Shown: positions 3,887-25,600, counted from the stretch's first letter. The stretch: 44,799 nucleotides of DNA from Clostridia bacterium (GCA_017628875.1 JAGBYG010000121.1:1-44799), one strand, 5' to 3'. Notes: generated by a model from the letters alone, not told the origin. A program made the numbers and translations.

Positions 3887-4425
3887 ATCGTTACCGTCCT
3901 TCCATCAACTACGGGAGAATACAAGCCATAGTCCGAATTATTCTGTCTTCCTATAACCTCTATAGCACTTATCTTCCGCATATTCTCCGACATTCCCTTG
4001 AACATCATTTTTTCCTTTTTAGTCTGTCTCGCTTTCGCTTTCTTTTCAGGAGTATTCGCCGCAGCTTCCTGTCGTTTCTGCTCGCGGTATCGTGCTTGAT
4101 ACTCCAGTCTGTGCTTCTCTTTGCAAGCATCGCATCGGCAGCTGTTCGGATGAGTACCGATAGACACGCCGCAATCTACGCAAAACTTCTCCGGCGGCGT
4201 AATAAACTCAATAAACTCCTTTTCGTGTGCAAACATATGCTGAAGCTTTTTAAACTGCTCTTCGTTTATCTCTTTGCGAACATCGTAATAATCTCTGATC
4301 GCCTGATACGGAACGCCCGAAAACTTGTACATCTGTGTCCAACTTGCGCCCGTCTTGCGGATAAACCGTTGGATGTCTCGCGCAAGCTTCTGTTTGCGCT
4401 TAAGTTTCCTCTCAATCGTCGTCAT
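3883..4425 (-). CDS. Hypothetical DNA-binding protein with Zn-ribbon-like Cys cluster
   Basis: 180 aa; ATGA overlap with the downstream gene; basic N-terminus; CVDCG..CRCDAC cluster followed by a K/R-rich helix. Confidence 0.6.
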   Translation of the reverse strand: MTTIERKLKRKQKLARDIQRFIRKTGASWTQMYKFSGVPYQAIRDYYDVRKEINEEQFKKLQHMFAHEKEFIEFITPPEKFCVDCGVSIGTHPNSCRCDACKEKHRLEYQARYREQKRQEAAANTPEKKAKARQTKKEKMMFKGMSENMRKISAIEVIGRQNNSDYGLYSPVVDGRTVTI

Positions 4426-4642
4426 CGTATTTCGACTCCATTACCATCCTGTAAATCTCACATTTTTCATAAGCCTTGCAGCAAAAGGTCTGTAAGTGCA
4501 GCTCCTGCTCCACGTGAAATCTCCAGCGGATATCAAGAACGCACCTGTTGGTAAACCCTTCGCACACAATCTTCCTGCGCCCGTCATCGTATCGATAAAA
4601 CGGACACTGAACATCACTCTGAACAAAAGAACCACTCGGCAT
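4412..4642 (-). CDS. Small Cys-rich hypothetical protein (76 aa from the internal ATG)
   Basis: ATG at 4642 preceded by TAAGGAGGAATGTT; the ORF-track start at 4702 has no comparable RBS. Confidence 0.6.
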   Translation of the reverse strand: MPSGSFVQSDVQCPFYRYDDGRRKIVCEGFTNRCVLDIRWRFHVEQELHLQTFCCKAYEKCEIYRMVMESKYDDDD

Positions 4643-4710: not shown

Positions 4711-5124
4711 CTAATTTTTGGCCTTAAAGTCTCGAAACCACATCATCAGCTCATCGTTGTCGGCGTTTTCGGCAGGCGGATCAACGTTGCACATTTCAGC
4801 AATCAAAAAGCAATATCTTGCAACTTCTTCGCTTCTCTGCTTACCGGCAATCAATCCCTGCTTTTGCTGCTTCACCCTTGCATATATCTGTCCAAGCTGC
4901 GGTGCAAACTCTCCACCTTCGGCGGAAATTTCCATAATTGCCTGAGTAACATCTTCGCTTTTTGCTTTTCCGAAAAACTTAAGCCAAGTGTTCACCAGTG
5001 CGTTTATTTCCATTTCCGTTCCCGGTGTCCTATAGTTCGACCAAAGCTGACTCATCAGGTATATACAGCCCTTCACATCTGCTTGTGTCATACATATCCC
5101 TCTTAATGCTCTCAAGTAAGGCAT
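4711..5124 (-). CDS. G39P-like replicative helicase loader/inhibitor (start uncertain: 5124, 5091 or 5055)
   Basis: WSNYRTPGTEMEINALVNTWLKFFGKAKSEDVTQAIMEISAEGGEFAPQLGQIYARVK resembles the 'loader and inhibitor of G40P' family; sits downstream of the replisome organizer. Confidence 0.55.
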   Translation of the reverse strand: MPYLRALRGICMTQADVKGCIYLMSQLWSNYRTPGTEMEINALVNTWLKFFGKAKSEDVTQAIMEISAEGGEFAPQLGQIYARVKQQKQGLIAGKQRSEEVARYCFLIAEMCNVDPPAENADNDELMMWFRDFKAKN

Positions 5125-5722
5125 CGTTTCTGCCTCGTTTGGGAGTGTTTCCGTTTCTGCCTTCCCATGAGATAACCTTCTGTTTCCAAGATTTCACCTT
5201 TTGGCCTTTACTGTCGACCCAATTGTTAGCCTCGAAGTAGTCAAAGAACCGTTTGGGATCAACCTCATTGCCCCTTTCTCGGCAATAATCGGCAATTTCA
5301 GCGAGCGTGGGTGGCGTGAAACGCTTATTATTACTCTCCTTTGCCTTTTCCTTATCCTTTGCCTTTTCCTTATCCTTTGCCTTTTCCTTTGCCTTTTCCT
5401 TTTCCTTGGCATCGTTGGCATCTTTTTGAATGCCATCGCATGCGTTCGCATCTTTCGCTATGCGTTCGCATCCGTTTGCATCCCATCTTTTATTGGCATT
5501 AAGGCTGCTCTTGTGGCATTTGGCCTCGTATTTTGCTACATCCCTATCTATCTGCCCCTTCATGGTCGGGAAGACAAACCTTTCATTACCGCGAAGGTCC
5601 GGGGTTACGCCCGTGCTGCTGTATTCAAGCAGTGCCGTGAATAACCGCCCTCTCTCTGCGTCATTTAAAGGCTCTATCGACTCTAAGTAGCTGTGATAGG
5701 CATTAAAGTATTCAAGTGCCAT
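5030..5722 (-). CDS. Phage replisome organizer (DnaD-like N-terminal region plus conserved phage C-terminus Phg_2220_C-like)
   Basis: 230 aa; ATG with GGTGAGG RBS; LNDAERGRLFTALLEYSSTG..QIDRDVAKYEAKC and FTPPTLAEIADYCRERGNEVDPKRFFDYFEANNWVDSKGQKVKSWKQKVISWE; central KEKAK low-complexity linker. Confidence 0.75.
   Translation of the reverse strand: MALEYFNAYHSYLESIEPLNDAERGRLFTALLEYSSTGVTPDLRGNERFVFPTMKGQIDRDVAKYEAKCHKSSLNANKRWDANGCERIAKDANACDGIQKDANDAKEKEKAKEKAKDKEKAKDKEKAKESNNKRFTPPTLAEIADYCRERGNEVDPKRFFDYFEANNWVDSKGQKVKSWKQKVISWEGRNGNTPKRGRNDALLESIKRDMYDTSRCEGLYIPDESALVEL
5338..5485. repeat. Tandem and iterated repeats inside the organizer gene (candidate replication origin)
   Basis: CCTTTGCCTTTTCCTTAT at 5338-5355 and 5356-5373 plus partial copies to ~5408; ATGCGTTCGCATC at 5440-5452 and 5460-5472; several GCATC copies 5409-5485. 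Confidence 0.4.
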
Positions 5723-5735
5723 TTACCTCACCGCC

Positions 5736-6137
5736 TTAAAACGGTAAGTCGTTTTCGTCTGCGTCTGTCTCCATCTGCTCTACAGGACCGTTAAAGTCGT
5801 AGAACGCACCGCCGGGAGCCGCTTCGCTCTTCTTGCTGTCGCCAAAGTAAACCTTGTCTGCAACAATCTCTGTTGTCACTCTCTTGTTGCCGTCCTTGTC
5901 GGTCCATTCGCTGTTTTCAAGATGACCGGCAATAATAATCTTGCTGCCCTTAGTGAAATACTTGCCGATAAAATCTGCTGTGCCTCGCCAAGAAACGCAT
6001 CTGAAGAAGTCTGCCTTTTCCTTGTCGAAATCTCTGTCTACCGCAATTGAAAAGTTTGTGACGGATACGCCGTTGGGGGTTCGTCTTACATCAGGATCTG
6101 CAGTAAGTCTTCCTGAAATGGTTAAGTTATTAAGCAT
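5736..6137 (-). CDS. ssb: Single-stranded DNA-binding protein
   Basis: 133 aa; OB-fold N-terminus MLNNLTISGRLTADPDVRRTPNGVSVTNFSIAV; acidic C-terminal tip DENDLPF. Confidence 0.95.
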   Translation of the reverse strand: MLNNLTISGRLTADPDVRRTPNGVSVTNFSIAVDRDFDKEKADFFRCVSWRGTADFIGKYFTKGSKIIIAGHLENSEWTDKDGNKRVTTEIVADKVYFGDSKKSEAAPGGAFYDFNGPVEQMETDADENDLPF

Positions 6138-10133: not shown

Positions 10134-10267
10134 ACTAACTTAATTCCCGGTAAACCGAGCCCGCGCCGCCAAGCTGAACCCGGTTTACCTTTGCAGGGAG
10201 CTGACAAAAGGTCAAAACTTAACCCAATGTCAGCGTACAATACTTTAAGGATTTAAACAATAGGAAC

Positions 10268-10347: not shown

Positions 10348-10917
10348 TTGAAAAGTAAAATTAAGCAGCTCGTTTCTGAGACTAAAGACTCAAAACCTTA
10401 CAACCAGTGCATCACTTGCGGCCACTTTGGCAAGACTTGTGGCGGCGCAAACTTTCTCTCTATGCACATTAAGCGCATGGGCGAATGGGCGCGTATCAGA
10501 AAAGATTATCTCGGTTGGACAAACGAATACATAGCCAAAGAGACAGGTGTGTCTGAGACTACTGTAGCTCGTTTCCTTGCCGGTCATTTAGATGAAATAA
10601 AGGTAACAACAGCGCAAGCTATTCTTGGTTTTCTTTCCAATGATTTCTGCGGATCTATGCCTTGCTACGATTTCAATAGCGTAGAGACATCTTCACCTGT
10701 TTCGGATCTGAAGATTCAGCATTATGAAAAACAAATAGCGAGCCTCGAAAAACAGATTGTGGATTTAATCTGCGAAAATCAAAAGAAGATAGATTTTCTC
10801 AAAACAGAGCTTGAAAAGCGCACGCTCTCCTTAATGAAGAGAGACGAGATTATAGAGAAGAAAGATGCAATCATCGAAAAAAAGGATGATATTATCGAAA
10901 GGCTTTTGACCAAATAG
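10348..10917 (+). CDS. HTH plus coiled-coil protein of the lysogeny module (TTG start)
   Basis: TTG preceded by GGAGGCTGACA; N-terminal CITCGHFGKTCGG; HTH EYIAKETGVSETTVARFLAG; C-terminal coiled coil with KRDEIIEKKDAIIEKKDDIIERL repeats. Confidence 0.65.
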   Translation: MKSKIKQLVSETKDSKPYNQCITCGHFGKTCGGANFLSMHIKRMGEWARIRKDYLGWTNEYIAKETGVSETTVARFLAGHLDEIKVTTAQAILGFLSNDFCGSMPCYDFNSVETSSPVSDLKIQHYEKQIASLEKQIVDLICENQKKIDFLKTELEKRTLSLMKRDEIIEKKDAIIEKKDDIIERLLTK

Positions 10918-10926
10918 GGTGTAAAT

Positions 10927-12012
10927 ATGATTTGCAAGAACATCAAATGCAAAAAAGAAATATCTGACGATTTCGAGTATTGCCCTTACTGTGGACGGAA
11001 GCAAACTGTAGCCGAGCGCAAAAAGAGCAAACGCCCAAACGGTGCGGGCTCTGTATATAAAAACTCCGGGCATCGCTCCAAGCCTTGGGTAGCTGTGCGC
11101 AATAAACAATTGTTGGGTAGCTATGCCACAAAAGCTGAAGCATTTGAGGCGCTTGAGCGCTCCGCTGGGGCTTCAATCACAGAGAAGTACAACTACACTT
11201 TCAGCGAAATATATGAGCTTTGGAGCGAAGAAAAATATCGCACGCTTACAAAAAAAGGCATAGAGGGCTACCGCTCTGCATACAGAAACAGCGCCGCGCT
11301 CTACGATAAAAAGTTTCGCAATATCAAAACGCCCGATTTTCAAAGTGTCATTGATAGGTTCGCAGAACAGGGTAAGTCAAAATCTGTCGCTTCAAAGCTG
11401 AAGCAGTTGTTTAGCCAAATGTCTCAATGGGCTATGCGCGAAGATATAACTACAAAAAACTACGCAACCTTTGTTACGCTTGAAGGTGAAGAAACAAAAG
11501 ATAAAAACATCTTTACCGACACCGACATTGCTAAACTCAAAGCGGACAACAGCGAAACGGCACAAATTGTATTATTGCTCATTTACACGGGCGCAAGAAT
11601 TACCGAGTTGTTTACTGCCGAAAAAACAAATTGTTTTGATGAGTATTTCATCGGCGGCATAAAGACGGAGGCGGGCAAAAACCGCATTATTTATGTGCCC
11701 GAAGTCGCACGCGAGTATTATAAATATTTTGTTCAATCGAGTAAGGAAACCTTACTCGATGGATATAGCGGCAACAAAAATGTCAACAACTTCCGTGGAC
11801 GAGATTTTGATGAGCTAATGGAAAAGCTGAGTATCGAGGGCAAAACCCCGCACTCAGCACGCCACACATTTACATCGCAAGCAGTTAAAAACAAAGTTCA
11901 GCCCGAAGTATTACAACAGTTATTGGGTCACGCTAAATACTCAACTACCGTTGATAATTATAGCCACATCAATAAAGATAGCATACTCGCGGAAGCTCAA
12001 AAAATTTGGTAA
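10927..12012 (+). CDS. int: Tyrosine integrase with N-terminal Zn ribbon
   Basis: 361 aa; CKNIKCKKEISDDFEYCPYCG; catalytic-region motifs TGARITEL, HSARHTFTS, LLGHAKYSTTVDNYSH; adjacent to the tRNA-derived att core. Confidence 0.95.
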   Translation: MICKNIKCKKEISDDFEYCPYCGRKQTVAERKKSKRPNGAGSVYKNSGHRSKPWVAVRNKQLLGSYATKAEAFEALERSAGASITEKYNYTFSEIYELWSEEKYRTLTKKGIEGYRSAYRNSAALYDKKFRNIKTPDFQSVIDRFAEQGKSKSVASKLKQLFSQMSQWAMREDITTKNYATFVTLEGEETKDKNIFTDTDIAKLKADNSETAQIVLLLIYTGARITELFTAEKTNCFDEYFIGGIKTEAGKNRIIYVPEVAREYYKYFVQSSKETLLDGYSGNKNVNNFRGRDFDELMEKLSIEGKTPHSARHTFTSQAVKNKVQPEVLQQLLGHAKYSTTVDNYSHINKDSILAEAQKIW

Positions 12013-12031: not shown

Positions 12032-12129
12032 ACGATTTTATTTTAATAACTTTTTGTGGCTATAAGTTGCTGTATTCCTTCATAATCGCTTTATATTTCA
12101 ATTATATTCGCTACTTGAAAAACTGAATT

Positions 12130-12179
12130 CTTCCTTGGTAAGGATGAGGTCACCAGTTCAAATCTGGTCAGCAGCTCCA
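12130..12179 (+). other. attP core: 3' portion of a tRNA-Thr(GGU)-like sequence (anticodon arm to CCA), not a complete tRNA
   Basis: CTTCC-TTGGTAA-GGATG (anticodon arm, GGT anticodon, one stem mismatch), AGGTC variable loop, ACCAG-TTCAAAT-CTGGT T-arm, CAGCAGC-T-CCA acceptor 3' strand. The upstream 20 nt cannot form a D-arm or a matching acceptor 5' strand. Confidence 0.7.
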
Positions 12180-12255
12180 AAAATGCCCGATTTCTTAGGA
12201 AATTGGGTATTTTTTATAACTTTTTCACATTACAATTTATTGCACTCCAACTCAA

Positions 12256-12317: not shown

Positions 12318-12486
12318 ATCTAAAGCGTTTCGCACCCGCTTAGGATAATGTGTTAGAATTAGTTTCGGAAAGATTTTTTTCAGGCTCAAAACTGATATTC
12401 TTTTCAATGCCGTTCTCGATGCTGCAATCATCGGGAGCGCAAACACACAAAACAAAGACCCTCCCCGAAATGGGGAGGGTCTTTTG
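12318..12486 (+). ncRNA. Candidate ~170-nt non-coding RNA between the promoter and the bidirectional terminator
   Basis: No RBS-preceded ORF in the interval; 5' hairpin CTAAAGCG-N9-CGCTTAGG; ends at the strong hairpin 12454-12484 followed by TTTTGTT. Confidence 0.3.
12454..12484. terminator. Bidirectional Rho-independent terminator
   Basis: AAAGACCCTCCCC-gaaat-GGGGAGGGTCTTT with T-runs on both strands; directly follows the stop of the 12487 gene. Confidence 0.8.
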
Positions 12487-13257
12487 TTATGCCTGAACTA
12501 TGTACTTATAGTACCTTGCGAGCTTATCTTCAGGACCGTCTTTGTCCTCTAAGAATGCTTTAGCCATTTCGAGCCAATAGTCAGGATGAATGATATTTAA
12601 TTTTTTCGCCACCTTGCCGTAATCGGAATACAGCATATTTATAGTAGCATAAAATTCGGCGGGATCGCAATCGATACCCTTCTGAGCCATAAGCTGTTTT
12701 ACCTGCTCATAACTCCAGTGTGCGCCCATAGTTCCGTCCTCGTTCTGCATGCCTCTCACCCACTGCGTTGCAGTTTCTTTTGTAATAGGCATAACAGAGC
12801 TTCCACCGGCCTTGCCCTTTTCCATCGTGCCGCCGCGCCATCCCATTTCTTCAGGATAATCGTGAGGCATTTCGTGGGATCTTTCCATCTCACCACCTAC
12901 AGCAAAGCCTATTTTGTTCATCGGACTTGCAAGTGGGTCAGTGAAAGGAGGGCGGTGTTTCCTCTCTCTTTCGAGGGGGTCTCTTCCGCCGTCGTACTCG
13001 CCGTACATCGGCTCATATTCGCCACGATAAGTATTCTCCATTCTATACTGCTTTGCAGTTCTCGGTGCATACTTGCCGCTGTCGTAATGCGGTTTGCCTC
13101 GTCTGTCAGTAAATCGATCCTCGGGCTCGTATCGATACTGTTTCATGTCATAACGGTTGTCATAGCCGTTACGCATTTCTCTATCGTTCATTTCATAACG
13201 GTCTCCGCGGTCCTCTTTGCCTTTAGCAAGCATAACCATTCTTGCAACATTGTTCAC
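12487..13257 (-). CDS. Cargo protein E: R/Y/E/D/M/G-rich low-complexity N-half plus conserved helical C-terminal domain (function unknown)
   Basis: GTG at 13257 preceded by AAGGGGGG (the ORF-track TTG at 13302 overlaps the upstream gene). RYEMNDREMRNGYDNRYDMKQYRYEPEDR...; C-terminal HWSYEQVKQLMAQKGIDCDPAEFYATINMLYSDYGKVAKK..KLARYYKYIV. Confidence 0.65.
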   Translation of the reverse strand: MNNVARMVMLAKGKEDRGDRYEMNDREMRNGYDNRYDMKQYRYEPEDRFTDRRGKPHYDSGKYAPRTAKQYRMENTYRGEYEPMYGEYDGGRDPLERERKHRPPFTDPLASPMNKIGFAVGGEMERSHEMPHDYPEEMGWRGGTMEKGKAGGSSVMPITKETATQWVRGMQNEDGTMGAHWSYEQVKQLMAQKGIDCDPAEFYATINMLYSDYGKVAKKLNIIHPDYWLEMAKAFLEDKDGPEDKLARYYKYIVQA

Positions 13258-13270
13258 GCCGACACCCCCC

Positions 13271-13660
13271 TTATGCGCCTGCTGCGGGAGTAGTTCCGTC
13301 AATAGCGTCTAACGCATTGTTAGGAGCACAGCACGGAGTTCCAAGCAGCTTGAACGAGCCTCCGATTGCGGAAGTGGAAACCACAGTGGAATATCTTGTG
13401 CGAGTTCTAAGGGCGCACGCTGTCACCTGAGCGCAGCACTTATTAGTCAAAGGATATTCTTCAGTACCGTCACCCACAGTGATTACAACAGGCGCGGTAA
13501 TAGTAGTTGCTGCCGGTATTGCCTGAGCTATAACAATGCAGTATTTTTCGCCATTGGCATAGCTGCCAGCGGGAAGGTTTACGGTTAATGTACCGTCTGC
13601 AAAAGTCACAGCTTGGCTTAAAACTAATCTGTCACATAATCTGCAAATATATTTAGCCAT
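13271..13660 (-). CDS. Cargo protein D: 129-aa Cys-containing beta-rich protein (function unknown)
   Basis: ATG with AAAGGAGG RBS; Cys pairs at the N-terminus (CRLC), middle (NKCCAQVTAC) and C-terminus (TPCCAP); T/V/I/A-rich strands. Confidence 0.65.
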   Translation of the reverse strand: MAKYICRLCDRLVLSQAVTFADGTLTVNLPAGSYANGEKYCIVIAQAIPAATTITAPVVITVGDGTEEYPLTNKCCAQVTACALRTRTRYSTVVSTSAIGGSFKLLGTPCCAPNNALDAIDGTTPAAGA

Positions 13661-13681
13661 AAAAAAGCCTCCTTTAAATCA

Positions 13682-13701
13682 GGGGCAGCCAAAGCTGCCC
13701 C
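13682..13701 (-). promoter_or_regulatory. Intercistronic GC hairpin (attenuator or mRNA-processing element)
   Basis: GGGGCAGC-caaa-GCTGCCCC between cargo genes C and D; no strong T-run. Confidence 0.35.
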
Positions 13702-13723
13702 GAAGTTTCACCCTTTAGGGGAT

Positions 13724-14422
13724 TTATGCGCCACAGCCGCAGCCACAGCCATTGTTATAGGGAACTGCTACAGGAGTAGGAGGAGATACCCAATAAGCGG
13801 GAGTGGGGCAATCGTTGCCGGTGCGTCTGATAATTTCGGCAGTGCTTGCATCAATAGCCGCACGAATTACAGCATTCTGCTGGCTCTGAGAAAGCTGATT
13901 GCTAAGTTCTGCAATGCGAGCATCCTTGGTTGCGAGCTTCTCGTTTACAAGGAAGTCCATCAGACCCCTATAGTTGGCGTTCTGATTGTCAATAATGTCG
14001 CGGGTCTGCATATTGATTACATTGCCAATATCGCAGAAGCCTTTTGCCATATTGAAGTTAACGCCGTCTACTGCTCTCTGTGTAGTGCAGCAGCAATCTG
14101 CGAGCTGGCTCTGCAAACCATAGAAGCCGCTGGTAATGGCATTATTGAGCGCATAAGTGGAGTCACAAATACCCTGCTGTACGCCTCTTACTGCGCTATC
14201 AATGTTCTGAGTTGCAAAGCCGTCATACAGTTCGGCACGGGTAAGAGCCTGTCCGCCGCCACCGCCGCCGCCAAAAAGACCGCCGCCGTAGCCACCGTAA
14301 CCAAGCACCATAGCCGCAAGGATAATACCCCAAATGCCGCCAAAGCCGTCACCGAAACCACCGTTATTGTTTTTGCCGTCCTGTCCCATAAGATAACCTA
14401 AAGTTAAAGAGTCTTCGCCCAT
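13724..14422 (-). CDS. Cargo protein C: Gly-rich membrane segment, Cys-rich core, CGCGCG C-terminus (function unknown)
   Basis: 232 aa; GGFGDGFGGIWGIILAAMVLGYGGYGGGLFGGGGGGG; ADCCCTTQ; coiled-coil-like Q/N-rich segment; ends NNGCGCGCGA. Confidence 0.65.
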   Translation of the reverse strand: MGEDSLTLGYLMGQDGKNNNGGFGDGFGGIWGIILAAMVLGYGGYGGGLFGGGGGGGQALTRAELYDGFATQNIDSAVRGVQQGICDSTYALNNAITSGFYGLQSQLADCCCTTQRAVDGVNFNMAKGFCDIGNVINMQTRDIIDNQNANYRGLMDFLVNEKLATKDARIAELSNQLSQSQQNAVIRAAIDASTAEIIRRTGNDCPTPAYWVSPPTPVAVPYNNGCGCGCGA

Positions 14423-14483
14423 TGTTTAACCTTCTTTCGTTTTAAATTTTTTATATCGTCAGGCCGTACGCTCCTGATAATAT

Positions 14484-14720
14484 TTATCTTTCGCTCGGTA
14501 TGGTTATGCCAAGCTGTCTCGCTACATCATCCACAGTTGTTCCACGTTCTGCCGCTACATTCTGAGCTATGCGCTTCAGCTCAGCGGGGCTCTTGCCATT
14601 CATCATCTGCATAATCTGTCTTACTTGTGGATTGTTCTGCGCTAAAGAAAATAAAATCTGCTGGGGATTTTTCCCTCTGCGCAACATATCTACCATCTGC
14701 ATTGCAGGATTATTCATCAT
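14484..14720 (-). CDS. Cargo protein B: 78-aa M/Q/N-rich helical protein (function unknown)
   Basis: Start overlaps the upstream stop (GATGATGAATAA); no family recognised. Confidence 0.55.
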   Translation of the reverse strand: MMNNPAMQMVDMLRRGKNPQQILFSLAQNNPQVRQIMQMMNGKSPAELKRIAQNVAAERGTTVDDVARQLGITIPSER

Positions 14721-15072
14721 CGTCGCTTACTCCTTTTAGTTTGGATAATTCTTCTTCTAAACGCTTGATATCGTCTTTAGTTGCGTATTCGATAACCTCG
14801 CGCTTTTCGCTAACAGGTTCAAACTCCATAAACTCAGCCGCACCTGTCTGATAGTTCCACCGCTTTACATATATTCTGTTGTGGGAAATGTCGGGGAACA
14901 CCATTAAATTGCCGCTAAAGTCCGCAGGAACGCCCCCTGCTTCTTCTCTACTCGACACAAGACGAGATGTCAAAGATAGGCCCTGTGCATTCTGAGAGGG
15001 CTGTGGAGGCTGATACACGGGCTGCTGGTAATTGAAATAGTTGGGATAATTTAAAGTTGTTGGATAAGCCAT
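14710..15072 (-). CDS. Cargo protein A: P/Q/Y-rich N-terminus, small beta domain, acidic coiled-coil tail (function unknown)
   Basis: ATG with AAAGAGGTGG RBS; MAYPTTLNYPNYFNYQQPVYQPPQPSQ...; RIYVKRWNYQTGAAEFMEF. Confidence 0.6.
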   Translation of the reverse strand: MAYPTTLNYPNYFNYQQPVYQPPQPSQNAQGLSLTSRLVSSREEAGGVPADFSGNLMVFPDISHNRIYVKRWNYQTGAAEFMEFEPVSEKREVIEYATKDDIKRLEEELSKLKGVSDDDE

Positions 15073-15100
15073 AAAACCACCTCTTTCTGAGTAAATGGTA

Positions 15101-15140
15101 AAACAAAAAGCTCCCCTTGTTGTGCAAACAAAGGGAGCTT
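15101..15140 (-). terminator. Rho-independent terminator after the sigma-like gene
   Basis: Minus strand: AAGCTCCCTT-loop-AAGGGGAGCTT followed by TTTTTGTTT; lies between the 15149 stop and the RBS of cargo gene A. Confidence 0.65.
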
Positions 15141-15148
15141 GAAGGGCA

Positions 15149-15382
15149 TTATAAAATCGTATCTGCTATTTTGATTAACGCTCTTTTGTGTATAGTCTTA
15201 GCTTGTCTTTCACATATACCGATGGTATCTGCGACAAAGCACAGATCCTTGTCTTGTATGTCGTGCATCAGAACAAGCAGGTGTTCCCTTTCGGGAAGTC
15301 CCACTTGTTCTAATATAGCTCTTGCCTTAACAGGAGAGCCGTGTCTCAAAAGGTGTCGAACAGTTTTGGTACGTTCGTCCAC
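15149..15382 (-). CDS. Sigma-70 region-4-like / LuxR-like HTH regulator (77 aa from GTG)
   Basis: GTG at 15382 preceded by GGGAGGTATTCAA; LPEREHLLVLMHDIQDKDLCFVADTIGICERQAKTIHKRALIKI matches the region-4 HTH pattern. Confidence 0.6.
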   Translation of the reverse strand: MDERTKTVRHLLRHGSPVKARAILEQVGLPEREHLLVLMHDIQDKDLCFVADTIGICERQAKTIHKRALIKIADTIL

Positions 15383-15407
15383 TTGAATACCTCCCAAAAA
15401 TTATTTG

Positions 15408-15435
15408 GGTTAAGTTTTGGGGAGGTTAAGTTTTG
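15408..15435. promoter_or_regulatory. Two direct 12-nt repeats upstream of the sigma-like gene
   Basis: GGTTAAGTTTTG at 15408-15419 and 15424-15435 (16-nt period) in the 48-nt intergenic gap. Confidence 0.35.
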
Positions 15436-15445
15436 ACCGTTGCTA

Positions 15446-15691
15446 TTAAGGATAGTTTTCTTCGTCCGTAGGTTTGACTTTGGTCATAATATCGCTGCCG
15501 AAAATCTGCCTTAGAGCGATAATGAAAAGTTCACCGCCCCAAAAGCCTAATAGTCCGGCTAACACGTTTCCGGGAATAACGGTGTCAAGTCTGTGGTATT
15601 CCCACAATATAGCCGCTGTGATAATAATGCTTACCGCTACACAGAAAACGATAATAGCATTGGCAAATTTTATCTTGCTCAGTTTCTTCAT
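15446..15691 (-). CDS. Two-TM membrane protein of the lysis cassette (second holin/antiholin-like)
   Basis: 81 aa; ATGA overlap with the endolysin stop; TM segments AIIVFCVAVSIIITAAILW and VLAGLLGFWGGELFIIAL. Confidence 0.55.
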   Translation of the reverse strand: MKKLSKIKFANAIIVFCVAVSIIITAAILWEYHRLDTVIPGNVLAGLLGFWGGELFIIALRQIFGSDIMTKVKPTDEENYP

Positions 15692-16335
15692 TTTGCCATC
15701 ATTCTCTTGTTGATAATAACGGTCTTGATATCTGACAGGAACATATTGATATCTTCACTGTCGATAACCTTGTCTGTGCCGCCGTTGATAATGCCGCTGT
15801 CGAGAAGTTCTCGCATATCTGCCTTTGCCCATTCGGGAAGGTCGGAGAATCTCTCGATGTACTTGTCACCAAGTTCAGCTAAGATTTCATCTCTTGTCAT
15901 GTAGTCATCTCCTAAAGGACGCATAAGGGTTTTAATTAAGCTTTTGCTTCTGATACGTCGATAAACACCGCCGCCGTTGTCCTGACTTCCACCATTGCCG
16001 GGTGAAGTGTTTCCCTCTATAGTGGTAACAGTTCCATTGCCGTTATCCTTTTCAATAATGGCAGTATGTCCGCTTCCGATATTAAAATATACGATATCGT
16101 TCGGCTTCGGGTCTTTCACTACCTTGTCAGGCTCGTTGTTTTTGTAATAGTTCGCCAAAGCAGAGGAAGAAGCTGTTTTGAAAGGCAGCTCGTGTCCTGC
16201 CATAGCAAACCAATACTGAACGCACTGTACGCACCACGCTACGCCATTCCATCCGTACCACTCGCCATACTTGGTTTTGTTTACGGGTGTTTCGGTGTAG
16301 CCGATGTCCTGACGGGCAAAGTCGAGGGGAGTCAT
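15688..16335 (-). CDS. Endolysin, CHAP / NlpC-P60-type peptidoglycan hydrolase with an unassigned C-terminal domain
   Basis: 215 aa; NGVAWCVQCVQYWF (catalytic Cys context), GSGHTAIIE, TIEGNTS; ATGA overlap with the holin. Confidence 0.85.
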   Translation of the reverse strand: MTPLDFARQDIGYTETPVNKTKYGEWYGWNGVAWCVQCVQYWFAMAGHELPFKTASSSALANYYKNNEPDKVVKDPKPNDIVYFNIGSGHTAIIEKDNGNGTVTTIEGNTSPGNGGSQDNGGGVYRRIRSKSLIKTLMRPLGDDYMTRDEILAELGDKYIERFSDLPEWAKADMRELLDSGIINGGTDKVIDSEDINMFLSDIKTVIINKRMMAK

Positions 16336-16652
16336 TTAGACTCCTCCTCAGTGGTGATAAGCAGACCGTTATTAAGTGCATAAACAGCCGCCTCAATCAT
16401 AGCGTCAATAGTTGCCTCGTCAAGCTCAATACCGTGTTCGGCAAGGTAAGCCAAAACATAAGCCTTCTTCTCTTCGCCTCTACCGACGCCTTTGTAAATC
16501 TGCTCTGCGGCGGCTACAGCAATTTTAATCCATTCGTTGATTTTCTTCTGCTGTGTTGCTGTGGTCTTGCTCTTAATGTAGGGAACAATAACCGCTGTGA
16601 CGATAGCGCAAAGAAGTGTAATAATTGCTTTTACAATAGGTGTAATGTCCAT
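16332..16652 (-). CDS. Holin, LL-H family-like
   Basis: 106 aa; single N-terminal TM ITLLCAIVTAVIVPYI; WIKIAVAAAEQIYKGVGRGEEKKAYVLAYLAEHGIELDEATIDAMIEAAVYALN resembles Holin_LLH; AAGGAGG RBS. Confidence 0.8.
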   Translation of the reverse strand: MDITPIVKAIITLLCAIVTAVIVPYIKSKTTATQQKKINEWIKIAVAAAEQIYKGVGRGEEKKAYVLAYLAEHGIELDEATIDAMIEAAVYALNNGLLITTEEESK

Positions 16653-19494: not shown

Positions 19495-22221
19495 TCACTC
19501 CTGTACCCTAACGATAATGGGAATGTTTATACTCGGCGCATCTCCCACGCATTTCGCTGTAAGACTGTTTGCTCCTGTAGTCGCTACGGAGATTAAACCA
19601 AACGCAGCTATGAGTTCTGCATCTGCCGCCGCATCTGTGCCGCTGAGGACAACATCGAAGTCGGGGCTTACATCGTAACTCGCTTTCAGACCGCTAATAG
19701 TAATGGTCTGAGATTTATAGCCGCTTGAGTCTGCCCAACTTGTAGAGGAGAGCGTTCCTGTATACTGTGTCCAGCTACCCGCAGGACCAGCAGGACCTGT
19801 TGCGCCGTCACTACCCTTACTGCCGTTCTTTACCGTGAATGTACTTGTAGTATTATCGGTCTTTGTAACTGTGATAACATTGCTACCGCCGTCTGCATTG
19901 GAAGTGGTGGTCTGTGTAACGCTCTTGATGCCTACACCGTCAGAGCCGCTTGAGCCTGTATCGCCCTTGTCGCCCTTTAGATTTGCAGAGCTTGTACCGC
20001 TTGCTGATGTGACATTAAGTGTTGTACCACTCCAAGAATGTGTTACGGATGTACCGTCTTTGCCGTCTTTACCCGCAGGGCCTGTACCGCCATCCTGACC
20101 GGCAGGGCCTCTAAGATCAGCAGATGTTGTACCACTTGCTGATGTAACAGAAAGAGTAGTACCGTTCCAAGAATGGGTTACGGAAGTACCGTCTTTGCCT
20201 GCAGCACCGTCGCTACCTTTGCTGCCGTTTTTAACCTTGAATGTACTTGTAGTGTTATCGGTTTTAGTGACGGTGATTACGTTTTCGCCACCATCAGCAG
20301 AGCTTGTCGTGGTCTGTGTGACGCTCTTGATACCTACACCGTCATTACCGGCAGGGCCTGTATCACCGTCCTGCCCAGCAGGGCCTCTCAAATCAGCAGA
20401 AGATGTGCCACTTGCAGATGTAACAGAAAGAACGCTGCCGTTCCAGCTGTGCCTTGCACTTACGCCGTCGTCACCTTTCGGGCCGGTTTCACCCGTGCTA
20501 CCCCTACTGCCGTTCTTTACTTTAAAGGTGCTTGTGGTGTTGTCTGTTTTAGTTACGGTGATTACGTTTTCGCCACCGTCAGAATTGCTTGTTGTGGTCT
20601 GCACAACACTCTTAATGCCCACGCCGTCGTTGCCCGGAACACCCTGACCGCCGGTATCGCCTTTCTGTCCCTGACTTCCTCGGCTGCCATTCTTTACGGA
20701 GAATGTGCTTGTTGTTCCGTCAGTTTTGGTTACGGTGATAACGTTTGTGCCGCCGTCTTCTGCGCTTGTAGTAGTCTGAACCACGCTCTGAACGCCTACG
20801 CCGTCTTCGCCGTCTTTACCCGCAGCTCCGTCTTTACCCGCAGGACCGACAAGGTTAGCTGAAGATGTTCCGCTCGCAGACGTAATGTTAAGTGTTGTTC
20901 CGCTCCAACTGTGGGTAACGCTAATGCCGTCCTGTCCAGCAGGGCCTGTGTCGCCTTTTGCGCCCTGAAGCGGGCCGTTGTTTACCCAGCCGCTTGTCTT
21001 ACCGTAAATGTAAATGTCGTAGGGTTCTGCCGCGCCAACGCCGTATGCGTCGCCCTCGGAGGGGTTTGGAACTGCGCTCTGTAAAGCAGAGAGAGAAGCG
21101 TAATAGTCAAGAACTTTAAAGCCTGATCCGGTGTCACCTTTAAGGTCAGCGGAAGAAGTGCCGCTTGCGGAACTTATTGTCAGCTTTGTGCCGTCCCATT
21201 TGTGGGTTACGCTCACGCCGTCCTGACCGTCGTTGCCTGCCGGACCGGTGCTGCCCTTGCTGCCGTTTTTAACAGTAAAGGTGCTTGTGCCGCCGTCAGT
21301 TTTGGTGACGGTAATTACATTAGAGCCGCCGTCCTCTGTGGAGGTAACGGTCTGTGTAACGCTCTGAATGCCCACGCCGTCGCTGCCGTCTTTGCCGTCT
21401 TCACCGTCGCTGCCTCGGCTGCCGTTTTTTACAGTGAATGTACTCTTAGTGTTATCTGTCTTGGTCACAGTAATAACGTTACTGCCGCCGTCAGCGTTGC
21501 TCGTCTGAGTCTGAACTACGCTCTGAATTCCTACGCCGTCACTGCCGTCCTTGCCGTCGCTACCATCGCTGCCTCGGCTGCCGTTCTTAACTGTAAACGT
21601 GCTTTTAGTGCCGTCGGTTTTTGTTACGGTAATAATGTTTGTGCCGCCGTCTGTAGTGCCGGTCTGAGTCTGAACTACACTCTGAATTCCAACGCCATCC
21701 TTGCCCGCAGCACCGTCGAAATAGTCTTTGCCCTTTACAGGTGTATAACCATCCTTACCCGCTGCGCCGTCCTGACCGTCCTTGCCTGCAGGACCTACAA
21801 GGTCTGCGGAAGATGTGCCGCTTGCCGAAGTGACGGTAAGTCGTGTGCCGCTCCAAGAATGGGTCACGCTTGTACCGTCTTTGCCATCACGACCCGGCTG
21901 GCCCTGCGGACCTTCAGGACCTACAGCCGCCTTAACTTCAAAGTCAAAGGTCTGTCCGTCAGATAAGGTGATAGTGTAGGTTGTATATTCTCCGCTTTGA
22001 GACGTCTGTTCGATGCTTGTAATCGTTGCGCCCTGATCGCCCTTAACTCTGCCCAAGTCAATCTTCTGACCGTCGGTCATTGTTACGATAAGGTTGCCAT
22101 CTCCGTTTATCTCAAAGCCACTTGCCCCTCTGCCGATATAGCCCTGCAGCGTAGCAGTAATCTGAGGAGACAATCTTTCACCAATATCAGGAGTAATCTG
22201 AGGAGTAAGTTTAATGTCCAT
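19495..22221 (-). CDS. Collagen-like, modular repeat fibre protein (908 aa from ATG 22221)
   Basis: ATG at 22221 preceded by GAGGTGGAG (the ORF-track start at 22242 is TTG). G-X-Y runs (GPEGPQGQPGRDGKDG etc.) separate 6 copies of a (T/V/I)SVTHSWSGTxLxVTSASGTSSA module and 7 copies of a VGI(Q/K)SV(V/T)QT.T...DGG.NVITVTKTD.T.STF.VKNGS module. Confidence 0.85.
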   Translation of the reverse strand: MDIKLTPQITPDIGERLSPQITATLQGYIGRGASGFEINGDGNLIVTMTDGQKIDLGRVKGDQGATITSIEQTSQSGEYTTYTITLSDGQTFDFEVKAAVGPEGPQGQPGRDGKDGTSVTHSWSGTRLTVTSASGTSSADLVGPAGKDGQDGAAGKDGYTPVKGKDYFDGAAGKDGVGIQSVVQTQTGTTDGGTNIITVTKTDGTKSTFTVKNGSRGSDGSDGKDGSDGVGIQSVVQTQTSNADGGSNVITVTKTDNTKSTFTVKNGSRGSDGEDGKDGSDGVGIQSVTQTVTSTEDGGSNVITVTKTDGGTSTFTVKNGSKGSTGPAGNDGQDGVSVTHKWDGTKLTISSASGTSSADLKGDTGSGFKVLDYYASLSALQSAVPNPSEGDAYGVGAAEPYDIYIYGKTSGWVNNGPLQGAKGDTGPAGQDGISVTHSWSGTTLNITSASGTSSANLVGPAGKDGAAGKDGEDGVGVQSVVQTTTSAEDGGTNVITVTKTDGTTSTFSVKNGSRGSQGQKGDTGGQGVPGNDGVGIKSVVQTTTSNSDGGENVITVTKTDNTTSTFKVKNGSRGSTGETGPKGDDGVSARHSWNGSVLSVTSASGTSSADLRGPAGQDGDTGPAGNDGVGIKSVTQTTTSSADGGENVITVTKTDNTTSTFKVKNGSKGSDGAAGKDGTSVTHSWNGTTLSVTSASGTTSADLRGPAGQDGGTGPAGKDGKDGTSVTHSWSGTTLNVTSASGTSSANLKGDKGDTGSSGSDGVGIKSVTQTTTSNADGGSNVITVTKTDNTTSTFTVKNGSKGSDGATGPAGPAGSWTQYTGTLSSTSWADSSGYKSQTITISGLKASYDVSPDFDVVLSGTDAAADAELIAAFGLISVATTGANSLTAKCVGDAPSINIPIIVRVQE
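19777..21920. repeat. In-frame tandem coding repeats of the fibre gene
   Basis: Two interleaved imperfect repeat units with GXY linkers; these explain the long Cys/Ala-rich antisense ORFs in the track. Confidence 0.85.
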
Positions 22222-22231
22222 TAGCTCCACC

Positions 22232-22573
22232 TCATTCCACAATCATAATGTTGTCTTCGGCAATACTTGTTTTGTATTCGCCGTAGTAGTTTACATCGTA
22301 TCTGTATTTACCCTTTTTAAAGAGCTTAGTAACTTCCTCGTCACAAGCAAATGTAACGCCTGCAGCAGCGTAATGCTTTTCGGAATAAACATCCTCTTTG
22401 CGCTCGTTGCGGATAATAATTTCAAAAGCAGTTTCGTCTGTCGGTTCAACGATACCGCCGTCCTGATCTCTCAGATCTATTGCGAGATTTAATTCAAAAG
22501 TGTCTCCCTCGTACCAGTAAACGATACCGTTCTCAATTCTCGGAGACATCTTAGCTCTTGGAATTTCAGCCAT
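22232..22573 (-). CDS. Small beta-rich virion protein (113 aa)
   Basis: ATG with AAGGGGGAG RBS; first gene after the terminator that follows the giant ORF. Confidence 0.55.
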   Translation of the reverse strand: MAEIPRAKMSPRIENGIVYWYEGDTFELNLAIDLRDQDGGIVEPTDETAFEIIIRNERKEDVYSEKHYAAAGVTFACDEEVTKLFKKGKYRYDVNYYGEYKTSIAEDNIMIVE

Positions 22574-22648: not shown

Positions 22649-25600
22649 TTAATGCCACGGAGCGTCGTCTATAGTGCTTTCCGAGTAGTCAAGCAGGTAA
22701 AGGACATCTTTCTGATCTCTCGAAATATTCAGAGAATTTATGATATCCATGACCGCTTCCTTTTTAGAGCCGCTGTCTGTCTTGCCGTCGCCATCAGCAT
22801 CTGTGCCTTTGGCTTCCTTTTTCCTTACATAGTAATCTTTGTAGACATCAAACTCTATGCCTGTGGATTCTATCTCCTCGTAATACTTGGTGATAGCAGT
22901 AGAGGACATTTCCTCGCTTGCAAGGTTGAGTGCGTAGTTCTTAATGCTTTCAGCCTTGTCGGAAGTCTTCTCAACCTCCTGCGCCCATTTGGGAACTTCG
23001 TGAGTTTCCTTGACATCTCTCTTCGCCGTCTCTGCAGCATAGTCATAAGCCTTTTTGATAACCTCAGATTTCTCCGTGTCATCAAGTTTGTCGTACCAAT
23101 CGGCAGAGGTGATATCCTCGATGAGCTCTCTCTGTCTCTTGCCTCTTGTCTCGGCATACTTGACATACTCGTCCGCGCTGAGATACTCGCCGTCGATTTT
23201 ATCGCTCTGACTTACGCTGCTGGGGAACACTTCGTCAAAACCAAGGTCATAAAGTCTCTGCAGCTCATTGTCTGTAGGAGTGGAAACATCTTCGGATACA
23301 TAAGCCGGATTGAGCATATTGTTGAACACTCTCGCAAGCACAGTGCCGGTGCTTTCTCTTCTGCCCCATGCATCGATGTAAGGTATCTGCTGATATTCGC
23401 CCGGAGTCTTGTTTGCGCTCTTGCCGAGTAAATACTGAATGTCTCTCTCAATCTGAGTCTTGTTTCTATCGACCCAAGTTGTCTCTCGCTCGGTTTCAGT
23501 AACTCTTTCAATCTGTCCTGCAAGAGTAGGAAGTCCCTGAGAGAGGTAACTTGTAAAGGCATTAACGAGAATACCCATCAACTTGCCGTCAGAATAGCTT
23601 ACATTTTCGATGACATCCTGAAGACTTGAAAGCATACTCATTTCGAGCATGGGTTCGCTAATTCTGCTCACGCCCTCTAAAACTGCAGCAAGGTTAAACT
23701 CGCCGTCGTTTTCGATAAGCACGTTTGCAATCTCCGCACCCACGAACATGGGGAGAGCTTCGGGGGCAAGCCAATCAATAGTGAAGTTCTTGTCACCGAC
23801 GGTCAGCGCATAGTTCTGTCCGCCCATCAGCTCGTCAAATTCCTGCTGCTTCTTGTCCTTGTCCTCACCTGCAGAGAGAACACCCTGCTTAACGAGGAAA
23901 ATACCAAGTCCTAAGAGAGCAGATCCAACGAGGCCCGATGCAATAGAGTCGATTGCTTCTGCTGCTGTGGCTGTACCCTTCTTCACGCCGCGTGCGGCCT
24001 GAACAATGCCCTTTGCAAGTCCTACAGGAGAATACTCTATACCACGAACTAAAATGTTCGCAGGTGTTCTTCTGAAGGGCAGAACGCCTTCTGCAACGGT
24101 CTGTGCAGCGGCGACCACCTTGTTCTTCGCCTTGCTCTTTCTGCCAATAGCGGAAATAAAATTGGAGAAGTCGTTGAAGTCTCTGTATGTTGCTTTCTGT
24201 GCTTCCTTGATAGCATATGCTCTCGCCTTATCCAGCTCGCTCTGCTGCATTGTGGACATATCTGTAATGTTTCTTGCTTTGAGATATCCGGCAAGCGCAG
24301 AAGCGTAAGCAGGTCTGCTGAACCACATGTCTTCCGCCTCGAGTGCGAAGCTATTTGCATTAGCAAGCCAGTTGAAAGGCTTTGCAATCTTGGAAGAGCC
24401 GAATGCGGGTTTCATTCTTTCGATTTCGCCTATAGCATCATTGTACTTGCCTGCGCCGGTAATCTGATCCGCAACGATCTTATAATCTTCAAAAGCCGCC
24501 TTATAAAGTTTAGAGCCGCTTGCGATGGCCTTTGTTCGCTGCTCCTGCGGAATGAGCTTTTCGATGAGTGCAGCCGTTGCGTTCTTTGCACCTCTGACGG
24601 GAGCAAACATTGCGTTACCGAGAATGTTTCTGACATGGGTTCTCGGATTGAACAGCATTGCAAGATATCTCCAAGAGTTCCACTTATCCATAAAGGTGTG
24701 GGGAATCTGTGCAGCAACATGTCTGTAGATAGCTTCCTGAGCAGCAGTTCTTGCCTCTTCGGTCTCTGCCTGTTCGTAGTTCTTAACAAGCTGACTATCC
24801 ATTTCGAGCTGCGGAGCTTTGTCTCCATATCTCTCGTTGAGGCTATCCTGCAGCGTCTGAATGCTTCTCTGAATGCCGTAAAGCTGATATTCGGGAGAAA
24901 GCTTCTTGAGCATTCTTACAGCCTGTACCATCTGTGCGCCCTCTCTTACTCTTGCGGCAAGATCGGTCAGAATGCGTACCGCTGTTTCGGTATCGCCTGC
25001 GTTCAGAGCGTTGTTGTAAAGCTGGAAGCCAAGAGCCACATTGTTCTTGCCAAGCTGGTTCTTGTTCACATCGGCTGCCCAATCGAGAAGAGCATCATTC
25101 CAGCCCTTTCTCTTGATGGTATCGTCAGCATACTTCTTAGACTCAGCATCAGTAATGGGAATATAGCTGAAGCCGCCTTTCACCACTTCTTCGGTGAGTC
25201 TTTCAACCATTTCGTCGGAAGTAGCTTCTGCCTCCATAGCGGTTCTAACGGTCTGAGAAACCTTGTTGCCCTTGTTTGTTCTCGCAGGAACGGAAACCTC
25301 TCTGAAGGGCTTTTCGCCGGGTTCAATAGAGCCGTACTTCTGAACGAGAAGCTCGGTGGCTTTACTCGCAACAGCCTTAACGCCCTTTTTGTCAAGAGAC
25401 TCATAAAGTTCGGAGTACATCTTAACGGTGCGGGCTTCAGCGTTGTGCATTCTGTTTCTGTCTTCAACGCTGATGTTGTCACCCTGCTCGCGGTATTTAG
25501 CGATAGCTTCTTCCGTTTCTCTGATTTTCTTTAAGCGTTCAGTAAAGCGATCGAGAACAGCCTTTTCGCTTGCGTTGAACACGGACATATCAAGTGCATT

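Follow-up and report, generated by a model that had tools for sequence, protein, structure and literature searches.

What do the six genes that separate the lysis genes from the attachment site (attP) of a temperate Clostridia phage do for their carrier, and are they expressed with its late genes or apart from them? These genes lie in a 44,799-nucleotide (nt) stretch of DNA from a Clostridia bacterium (GCA_017628875.1 JAGBYG010000121.1:1-44799; hereafter the window), which represents a temperate phage with its late genes on the minus strand. From the lysis genes toward attP and the integrase, the interval contains a gene for a helix-turn-helix (HTH) protein, a strong intrinsic terminator, genes A-E and a second terminator, all on the minus strand. 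An annotation made from the sequence alone (the original prediction) had described a six-gene cargo block at this position, and each open reading frame (ORF) and flank was found as it stated (lengths in amino acids, aa):

15149-15382, minus strand: HTH protein, 77 aa, putatively of the stand-alone sigma-70 region-4/GerE type, with a GTG start and a GGGAGG ribosome-binding site
14710-15072, minus strand: protein A, 120 aa
14484-14720, minus strand: protein B, 78 aa, small, helical and Met/Gln/Asn-rich
13724-14422, minus strand: protein C, 232 aa, the anchor of the module
13271-13660, minus strand: protein D, 129 aa, beta-rich, and Cys-rich in Bacillota phages
12487-13257, minus strand: protein E, 256 aa, starting at the GTG at 13257

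We find that this cassette is a horizontally mobile, insulated accessory operon carried by thousands of gut phages. Its families are known only as the function-unknown catalog entries DUF7841 (PF25223), phrog_16490 and phrog_21718, to which E, C and relatives of A belong, respectively.

Linkage of the five families

Homologs of C and D number more than 7,000 and more than 5,000, respectively, in a 90%-clustered protein database. The C profile gathered 1,940 clusters at 50% identity, 944 of them at E≤1e-10; all were 115-330 aa in length, and no fusions were seen among the best 150. Searching with C recovered 44 viral loci from IMG/VR, which we analyzed together with 18 genome loci. Across the 44 viral loci, an iterative search identified A 34 times, D 35 times, B 28 times and E 21 times, with C-D pairs in ~35. 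Gene order was always A-B-C-D-E on one strand, and ~20 of the 44 had the full set. D was the slowest-evolving member, retaining 60-81% identity even where C had fallen to ~40%, and its homologs in GTDB came from metagenome-assembled genomes labeled Oscillospiraceae, Ruminococcus, Eubacteriales and Clostridia. C-D-E is a conserved core to which A and B are frequent additions, and the co-occurrence of the five families that had been put forward for checking holds as tight linkage across the 44 viral and 18 genome loci.

Spread across phages and variable position

The original prediction further asked whether the cassette always resides in prophages of spore formers, and took its post-lysis position beside attP to be that of classic lysogenic-conversion cargo. 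Comparison with other phages does not support cargo specific to spore formers. The virulent Clostridium perfringens phages CPD1, XP41-N3, 17DYC, HMD-PC1, PMQ04 and CPQ4 encode B (CPD1_037; E 1.7e-16), a homing-endonuclease-like ORF, C and D among small early-type ORFs, upstream of recombination and replication genes. In Bajarodcaudo virus 2, genes for A, B, C, D and an E-like protein lie between the portal and scaffold/capsid genes. In the cultured Bacteroides phage C3_41T2LP, the set comes after the RecT and YqaJ genes and reads, in order, small HTH, I-HmuI-type endonuclease, C, a weak D-like protein, a 77-aa Arg/Tyr/Asp-rich protein and a PolyVal metallopeptidase. The C protein of this phage (E 3.8e-31) is extended at its N-terminus by a B-like stretch, retains the hydrophobic segment and CCC, and ends in GCGCGC. 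Right after the holin gene of the crAss-like phage cr4_1 are E (E 7.9e-29), C (1.3e-21) and a D without cysteines (1.8e-6), its E protein bearing the DUF7841 domain first and the Arg/Tyr-rich tail second; at least 8 crAss-like genomes have E and C side by side. In a predicted Methanomassiliicoccales virus, C alone has a homolog (E 1.6e-9), annotated as phrog_16490 in its record. Among temperate Oscillospiraceae-type phages, the cassette is preceded either by a polyvalent-protein gene or by an endolysin gene, the endolysins falling into at least 6 Pfam types, and the following gene is usually an integrase.

Profile-profile alignment (hhalign) of the Bacillota and Bacteroidota versions of A, D and the E-like proteins returned low probabilities. 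What the two groups firmly share is C, DUF7841 and, more weakly, D. In cr4_1, which uses a recoded TAG (L046 845-8795; loci are designated here by L numbers), TAG accounts for 1 of 661 codons in E-C-D, compared to 30 of 1,351 in the flanking late genes and 0 of 171 in the holin gene. This near-absence fits either recent transfer of the cassette or its translation before the code switch.

The host range bears directly on the cross-linked envelope or spore-surface matrix of the original prediction, spelled out here as lysogenic-conversion cargo which, under a GerE-like regulator, builds a disulfide- or tyrosine-cross-linked matrix. The closest relatives reside in Oscillospiraceae and Clostridia, the cassette adjoins attP and has a candidate operator in common with the integrase operon, 3 of 19 upstream HTH proteins match the GerE family, and one related prophage abuts cotJ genes. 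The proteins are also like CotY/ExsY, Ena/DUF3992 and YjcZ, and coat and exosporium proteins in general, in composition: D has an N-terminal Cys cluster and a beta body, C a Gly-flanked hydrophobic segment, and E a Tyr-rich charged region. The resemblance to YjcZ and to coat or exosporium proteins proved to be compositional only, however, as neither Pfam nor NCBIfam gave a match to YjcZ, DUF3992/Ena, CotY/ExsY or any coat family (for C, the YjcZ models of both collections gave none at E≤1). Moreover, phages of Bacteroides, which does not sporulate, have the core too, as do crAss-like phages and the virulent C. perfringens phages. Neither signal peptides nor sorting signals are seen in A, B, D or E, and the cysteines of D are conserved only in Bacillota phages, its Bacteroidota-phage homologs having none. 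We accordingly give the matrix proposal very little credence.

A second possibility is that these are virion-borne proteins, with the low-complexity, partly disordered A and E packaged and ejected with the DNA, C inserting a fusion-peptide-like segment into the membrane of the target cell, and D serving as a minor capsid or tail protein. The cassette does lie within morphogenesis clusters in Bajarodcaudo virus 2 (portal, then A-B-C-D-E-like, then scaffold and major capsid protein) and in L019. Genes for polyvalent (injected) proteins or PolyVal-type metallopeptidases adjoin several loci, the C segment with its Met-rich neighbor and no positive flank would suit a soluble-first, later-inserting protein, and crAss records label C a 'viral fiber/spike', although these annotations are unvalidated. 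Yet the cassette has its own HTH gene, terminator and promoter-like box even within the structural cluster of L019, it follows the lysis genes in most temperate phages and sits among replication genes in two cultured phages, and A-E match no structural or virion family in PHROGs or Pfam. No proteomic data were found in the literature on carrier phages. Ejected cargo is, in our estimate, improbable.

Homing-endonuclease-like ORFs adjoin or split C in four lineages:

L042-L044 (~5812-7548 in L042): a 255-aa GIY-YIG-like ORF, probably an intron or homing element, divides C into ORFs of 130 and 87 aa
L041 6845-7684: homing-endonuclease-like ORF beside C
L045 (CPD1) 5122-5745: homing-endonuclease-like ORF beside C
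L073 (C3_41T2LP) 3934-4554: homing-endonuclease-like ORF beside C

Regulator gene, terminators and promoter-like elements

The following elements, most of them around the HTH gene and A-E, were located in the window:

15424-15435 and 15408-15419, minus strand: two exact 12-nt direct repeats, CAAAACTTAACC, with a period of 16, followed directly downstream by a −10-like AATAAT and the ribosome-binding site of the HTH gene
15429-15400, minus strand: candidate promoter of the HTH gene, TTAACC-18-AATAAT
15108-15140, minus strand: intrinsic terminator between the HTH gene and A, 14-base-pair stem plus T-run
15095-15100, minus strand: −10-like hexamer TACCAT, weak (4/6), 28 nt before the A start and just past the terminator T-run
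12454-12484, minus strand: closing terminator, strong, 13-base-pair stem, just before attP
10213-10224, plus strand: third exact copy of the 12-nt repeat, 11 nt upstream of a TACAAT box, before the HTH_3 gene/integrase operon

Both the repeats before the HTH gene and the terminator after it had been predicted and were located as such. The regulator itself had been called a 77-aa region-4 sigma/LuxR-like protein. Its length stood, and its region-4 type is likely, its match to Pfam Sigma70_r4 (PF04545; E 2.5e-4) scoring 20.9 bits against a cutoff of 24.1; the protein is very divergent. It is like the stand-alone GerE/LuxR and sigma-70 region-4 regulators in consisting of just an HTH, apparently of the region-4 type, and unlike them in scoring under the family cutoff and in having target sites that are candidates only. 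In at least 10 lineages the ORF directly upstream of A encodes a sigma-region-4/GerE-type protein of 54-120 aa. A Pfam search of 19 such upstream ORFs matched Sigma70_r4 or r4_2 in 7 and GerE in 3, the best E values among the positional equivalents being 4e-6 for r4_2, 1.2e-5 for r4 and 1.4e-7 for GerE.

The repeat pair is a candidate operator-like or −35-like element of the HTH promoter. Since exact 12-mer matches of this kind are expected by chance at only ~0.005, the third copy upstream of the HTH_3/integrase operon suggests that this operon and the HTH gene share a putative operator. L004 displays the same sharing by way of an unrelated 15-mer, GGTCATTGCTGGGGC, and the same layout of two repeats, CAATAAT and ribosome-binding site. 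Thus, a shared candidate operator is seen in two lineages with different repeats, and in our view this would link the regulator of the cassette with the region that controls lysogeny, not with the late operon. The motif common to the HTH_3 promoter region (10185-10215 in L004) and the cassette HTH gene consists of GGTCA plus a variable 9-10 nt that is phage-specific.

Insulation recurs as well. A GC-rich hairpin with a T-run separates the HTH ORF from A in 21 of 41 distinct loci, compared to 2.9 in shuffled sequences (maximum 7). Likewise, a hexamer matching at 5 or more of 6 positions, often TGnTATCAT-like, lies 24-45 nt before A in 26 of the 41, compared to 5.7±2.2 after shuffling (maximum 12); its commonest position is about −30 relative to the A start. 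The TACCAT of the window is accordingly a weak candidate for a −35-less promoter of A-E. Taken together, the A-E unit looks to be shielded from upstream transcription, and would have a −35-less, probably activator-dependent promoter. That the block is insulated and has an HTH gene of its own, as originally predicted, is borne out by the recurrence of the HTH gene, terminator and −10-like box in many lineages. Two to four short direct repeats with a period of ~11 nt (e.g., TGATAC ×4, ATGGCGT ×3 and ATGATAAAA ×3) were also observed within 100 nt upstream of A in L013, L019, L034, L049 and L055, directly upstream of the −10-like box; these arrays look like activator binding sites, of which they are candidates.

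The features expected of an autonomous accessory unit, or moron, were found: flanking terminators, variable position and a promoter-like box, the promoter being predicted from sequence. Like bor and lom of lambda and the staphylococcal immune-evasion cluster downstream of lysis genes, the cassette is a promoter- and terminator-bounded unit at the lysis-attP junction, with variable position, patchy distribution and horizontal transfer. Unlike those morons, it comprises six syntenic genes including a dedicated HTH gene, it is also found in virulent and crAss-like phages, and its products have neither a signal peptide nor a known host-directed function.

A third possibility is that the cassette is a late lysis or egress accessory module in which C acts with holin and endolysin at the membrane as an antiholin/timer or disruptor, with D and E as cofactors. 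The cassette directly follows the endolysin gene of the window, as it does in at least 8 lineages whose endolysins are non-orthologous, and in cr4_1, where the C gene is full length only with TAG suppression, it comes straight after the holin. In topology, C is like T4 holin T with its antiholins RI/RIII and the i-spanins (Rz), which combine an N-terminal hydrophobic segment with a large C-terminal domain bearing conserved cysteines, have small soluble partners, and are often encoded beside holin and endolysin genes. On the other hand, a terminator and a separate promoter-like element stand between the cassette and the lysis genes, the cassettes of CPD1, C3_41T2LP and Bajarodcaudo virus 2 lie away from lysis genes, and two holin-like genes are already present in the phage. 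The hosts, moreover, are monoderm (Clostridia, in most cases), diderm and possibly archaeal, and differ in envelope type accordingly. Unlike the T4 proteins and i-spanins, C has no positive flank and no lipoprotein partner; A-E gave no holin, spanin or antiholin match in Pfam, no holin match in PHROGs, and no lipobox or signal peptide of the kind looked for in spanins. We therefore consider a lysis or egress module unlikely.

Sequence features of proteins A-E

Every compositional feature that had been claimed for A-E was present. C is composed of an acidic N-terminus, a hydrophobic stretch, a helical region, a Pro-rich linker and a (GC)n end. Its segment reads GGFGDGFGG-IWGIILAAMVLG-YGGYGGG, CCC occupies residues 110-112, and the C-terminus is CGCGCGA. 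The hydrophobic core spans 8-13 residues (16 at most) within an uncharged, Gly/Trp/Phe/Tyr-rich stretch of 14-33 residues and has no Lys or Arg flanks. The helical region varies by repeats or indels of ~18 residues and contains an invariant (D/N)CCCTTQRxID motif. Residues 17-226 match phrog_16490 (E 2.6e-40).

D is directly downstream of C, with homing-endonuclease-like ORFs intervening in a few loci, and crAss gp17 is an example of its cysteine-free homologs. Neither D nor 21 diverse homologs of it matched Pfam at E≤5. Because D lies right after a holin/endolysin pair, has no signal peptide, and retains 60-80% identity across otherwise unrelated phages, we also weighed whether it might be a bacteriocin-like or host-directed effector freed by the holin and endolysin, with C as its immunity protein or export helper, by analogy with the sigma-plus-holin-dependent toxin and bacteriocin loci TcdR/TcdE and UviA/UviB. 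But searches of Pfam, NCBIfam and the PDB gave D no toxin or bacteriocin relative, genes for processing or export are absent from the cassette, the Bacteroidota-phage versions of D are strongly diverged and cysteine-free, and a toxin/immunity pair would not predict five-gene synteny. A released effector is very unlikely.

The 256-aa start of E is preferred over a 271-aa ORF with a TTG start, since the GTG at 13257 sits behind GGGGGGTG and the homolog P0241 begins at the equivalent MNNVAKMVML. E combines a low-complexity, R/Y/D/E/M-rich half, bearing a conserved (H)YDNGRFAP-type motif, with a C-terminal helical DUF7841 domain having invariant W, N-x-D-G, S-D-Y and D-x-D. Residues 165-266 match PF25223 with 97.9 bits (cutoff 25.2, E 5.7e-28), and this domain is present in 32 of 32 E homologs.

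A is made up of a P/Q/Y-rich head, a small beta domain (V-S-R-E-E-A...IYVK...TG), a coiled segment and an acidic tail; 13 of 20 of its relatives match phrog_21718. In lineages having A and C but neither B nor E, A is translationally coupled to a conserved Cys/His-containing protein of 127-129 aa, with no promoter or terminator between the two ORFs. A papain-like identity considered for this protein was discarded, there being no Pfam match. Equivalents of the following ORFs occur in L023, L056 and L063:

L018 4657-5040: 127-129-aa ORF before A
L035 1103-1492: 127-129-aa ORF before A
L036 695-1081: 127-129-aa ORF before A

In the Bacteroidota and archaeal-virus versions, C carries a B-like motif fused at its N-terminus. 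An STI1/ubiquilin identity considered for B had composition alone behind it and was dropped, as Pfam STI1 gave no match.

By direct reading, A, B, D and E have no signal peptide and no sorting signals, and none of the five proteins has a lipobox. Searches of all six proteins against Pfam, NCBIfam, PHROGs and PADLOC returned only DUF7841, function-unknown PHROGs and the sub-threshold Sigma70_r4 match, with no enzymatic domain among A-E; in PADLOC-DB 2.0, no protein matched at E≤1. Nothing in the PDB fell under E 0.07, either for single sequences of C, D and E or for profiles of D, A and E. The impression that the proteins resemble no known virion, lysis or defense family thus held up in these profile and PDB searches. 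AlphaFold2 models were unusable for both D (predicted local distance difference test, pLDDT, 48.7; 37 sequences) and C (42.7; 32 sequences), and Foldseek with the low-confidence D model (pLDDT 48.7) found no match under E 0.1. Literature searches on the cultured carrier phages, DUF7841, crAss spanins and crAss annotation terms yielded neither functional nor proteomic data, and in those on DUF7841, the annotation terms and the carrier phages we met no description of the cassette, of how it is regulated or of how widely it is spread.

Genetic setting in the window and in related loci

The late genes of the window encode a large terminase, a P22-type portal, a capsid, an ART-PolyVal polyvalent protein and a collagen-like fiber. 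The P22-type portal and two probable fibers suggest a podovirus-like virion. Flanking and neighboring features are as follows:

31800-33626: Peptidase_S74 chaperone-domain protein, 608 aa, probable fiber
22649-30442: ART-PolyVal protein, 2,597 aa, polyvalent and presumably injected
19495-22242: collagen/CFSR-repeat protein, 915 aa, probable fiber
16332-16652: Holin_LLH, upstream flank of the cassette
15688-16335: CHAP endolysin, upstream flank of the cassette
~12110-12182: 3' tRNA fragment, the attP core, downstream flank
10927-12012: tyrosine integrase, downstream flank
10348-10917: HTH_3 protein with a Cys-rich N-terminus, upstream of the integrase

The lysis side also holds an 81-aa protein with two hydrophobic segments, and the HTH_3 protein is kept in many cassette-bearing loci. 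The region yielded no Rfam family at the gathering score. In IMG/VR, no relatives of the window integrase were recovered, and a search with the window endolysin returned 6 loci only.

Several neighbors were observed in related loci. In L027 and L032, the cassette directly follows genes for LPD-domain giants. In L074 (8522-9093), L075 and L077, a related prophage ends in CHAP lysin-C-D-E, next to cotJA/cotJB and a 37-aa Mn-catalase fragment, which suggests that the prophage inserted into cotJC. The same prophage end in L076 (2259-5055) is followed by genes for a large serine recombinase, ThsB_TIR and SLATT. Three unrelated lineages have a gene for a small HExxH metallopeptidase (M78/SprT/PolyVal-like) shortly after the cassette:

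L031 7725-7988: HExxH metallopeptidase
L041 8908-9294: HExxH metallopeptidase
L073 7434-7898: HExxH metallopeptidase

Discussion

We tentatively favor, while stopping short of calling it probable, the view that the cassette is an insulated, HTH-controlled accessory operon whose products form a complex on C at the cytoplasmic membrane, there to serve in exclusion, host takeover or lysis control. The HTH protein, or an immunity regulator sharing its operator, would switch on the −35-less promoter of A-E; such a switch at the cassette's own promoter would place its control apart from the late structural operon. Five non-enzymatic proteins may then assemble on C, whose single short hydrophobic segment, flanked by Gly and aromatic residues, could bring a Cys-rich rod of helical repeats to the cytoplasmic membrane. 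D, with its beta domain, and E, with DUF7841 and an Arg/Tyr-rich tail, would be obligate partners, while B, or the B-like N-terminal extension of C, might shield or handle the hydrophobic segment. We infer each of three steps: the single complex on C, the membrane insertion of C, and expression set by the HTH/immunity circuit. As for what the phage would gain at the membrane, superinfection exclusion or host takeover is our first guess and control of lysis or egress our second.

A membrane-level accessory role is favored because monoderm, diderm and archaeal hosts have no envelope layer in common other than the cytoplasmic membrane, and because regulation and positions point away from the late structural program. 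Several observations nevertheless weigh against it. No homology in Pfam, NCBIfam, PHROGs, PADLOC or the PDB ties A-E to any function. Insertion of C into the membrane is uncertain, given a core of 8-13 residues and no positively charged flank, and since the AlphaFold models of C and D are unusable, complex formation is drawn from synteny only. Known exclusion systems are usually single small proteins that evolve fast, whereas D is unusually conserved. The cassette is located in the late gene block in crAss-like phages, Bajarodcaudo virus 2 and L019, and given how weak the TACCAT of the window is, transcripts of A-E could simply come from the late operon by read-through of the terminator.

The small HTH gene coupled to genes of unassigned function also invites comparison with anti-CRISPR and anti-defense operons, which have autoregulatory Aca-type HTH genes and whose hot-spots match positions of the cassette, lying after the endolysin of Firmicutes prophages and, elsewhere, between head-morphogenesis genes. 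Anti-CRISPR genes, however, are small, individually exchangeable and encode soluble proteins, whereas the cassette encodes five larger proteins in fixed order, one with a putative membrane segment and three with long low-complexity regions, and gave no PADLOC match.

A bolder extension of the favored reading, which we consider possible but doubtful, is that the cassette encodes a self-regulated phage machine of a new kind, a membrane-anchored assembly composed of the Cys-rich helical rod C, the conserved beta protein D and low-complexity partners rich in Arg/Tyr, Pro/Gln/Tyr and Met/Gln. If true, the machine would be common to crAss-like, Bacteroides, Clostridia and possibly archaeal viruses. 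It would carry out an infection-cycle step to which no system has yet been assigned in phages of gut anaerobes, for instance exclusion or egress by a universal membrane-level mechanism.

The crAss-like phages are the most abundant human gut viruses, and with the size of its C and D families and its spread across host phyla, the cassette ranks among the larger functionally blank modules of the gut virome. With its own regulator, an insulated promoter-like region and, in temperate phages, a candidate operator shared with the integrase operon, the cassette should be switchable and genetically tractable, and the cultured carriers, namely the CPD1-group C. perfringens phages and Bacteroides phage C3_41T2LP, open its function to direct test. 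Any role resolved in this way would annotate thousands of hypothetical genes, and could reveal a mechanism common to the phages of strict anaerobes.

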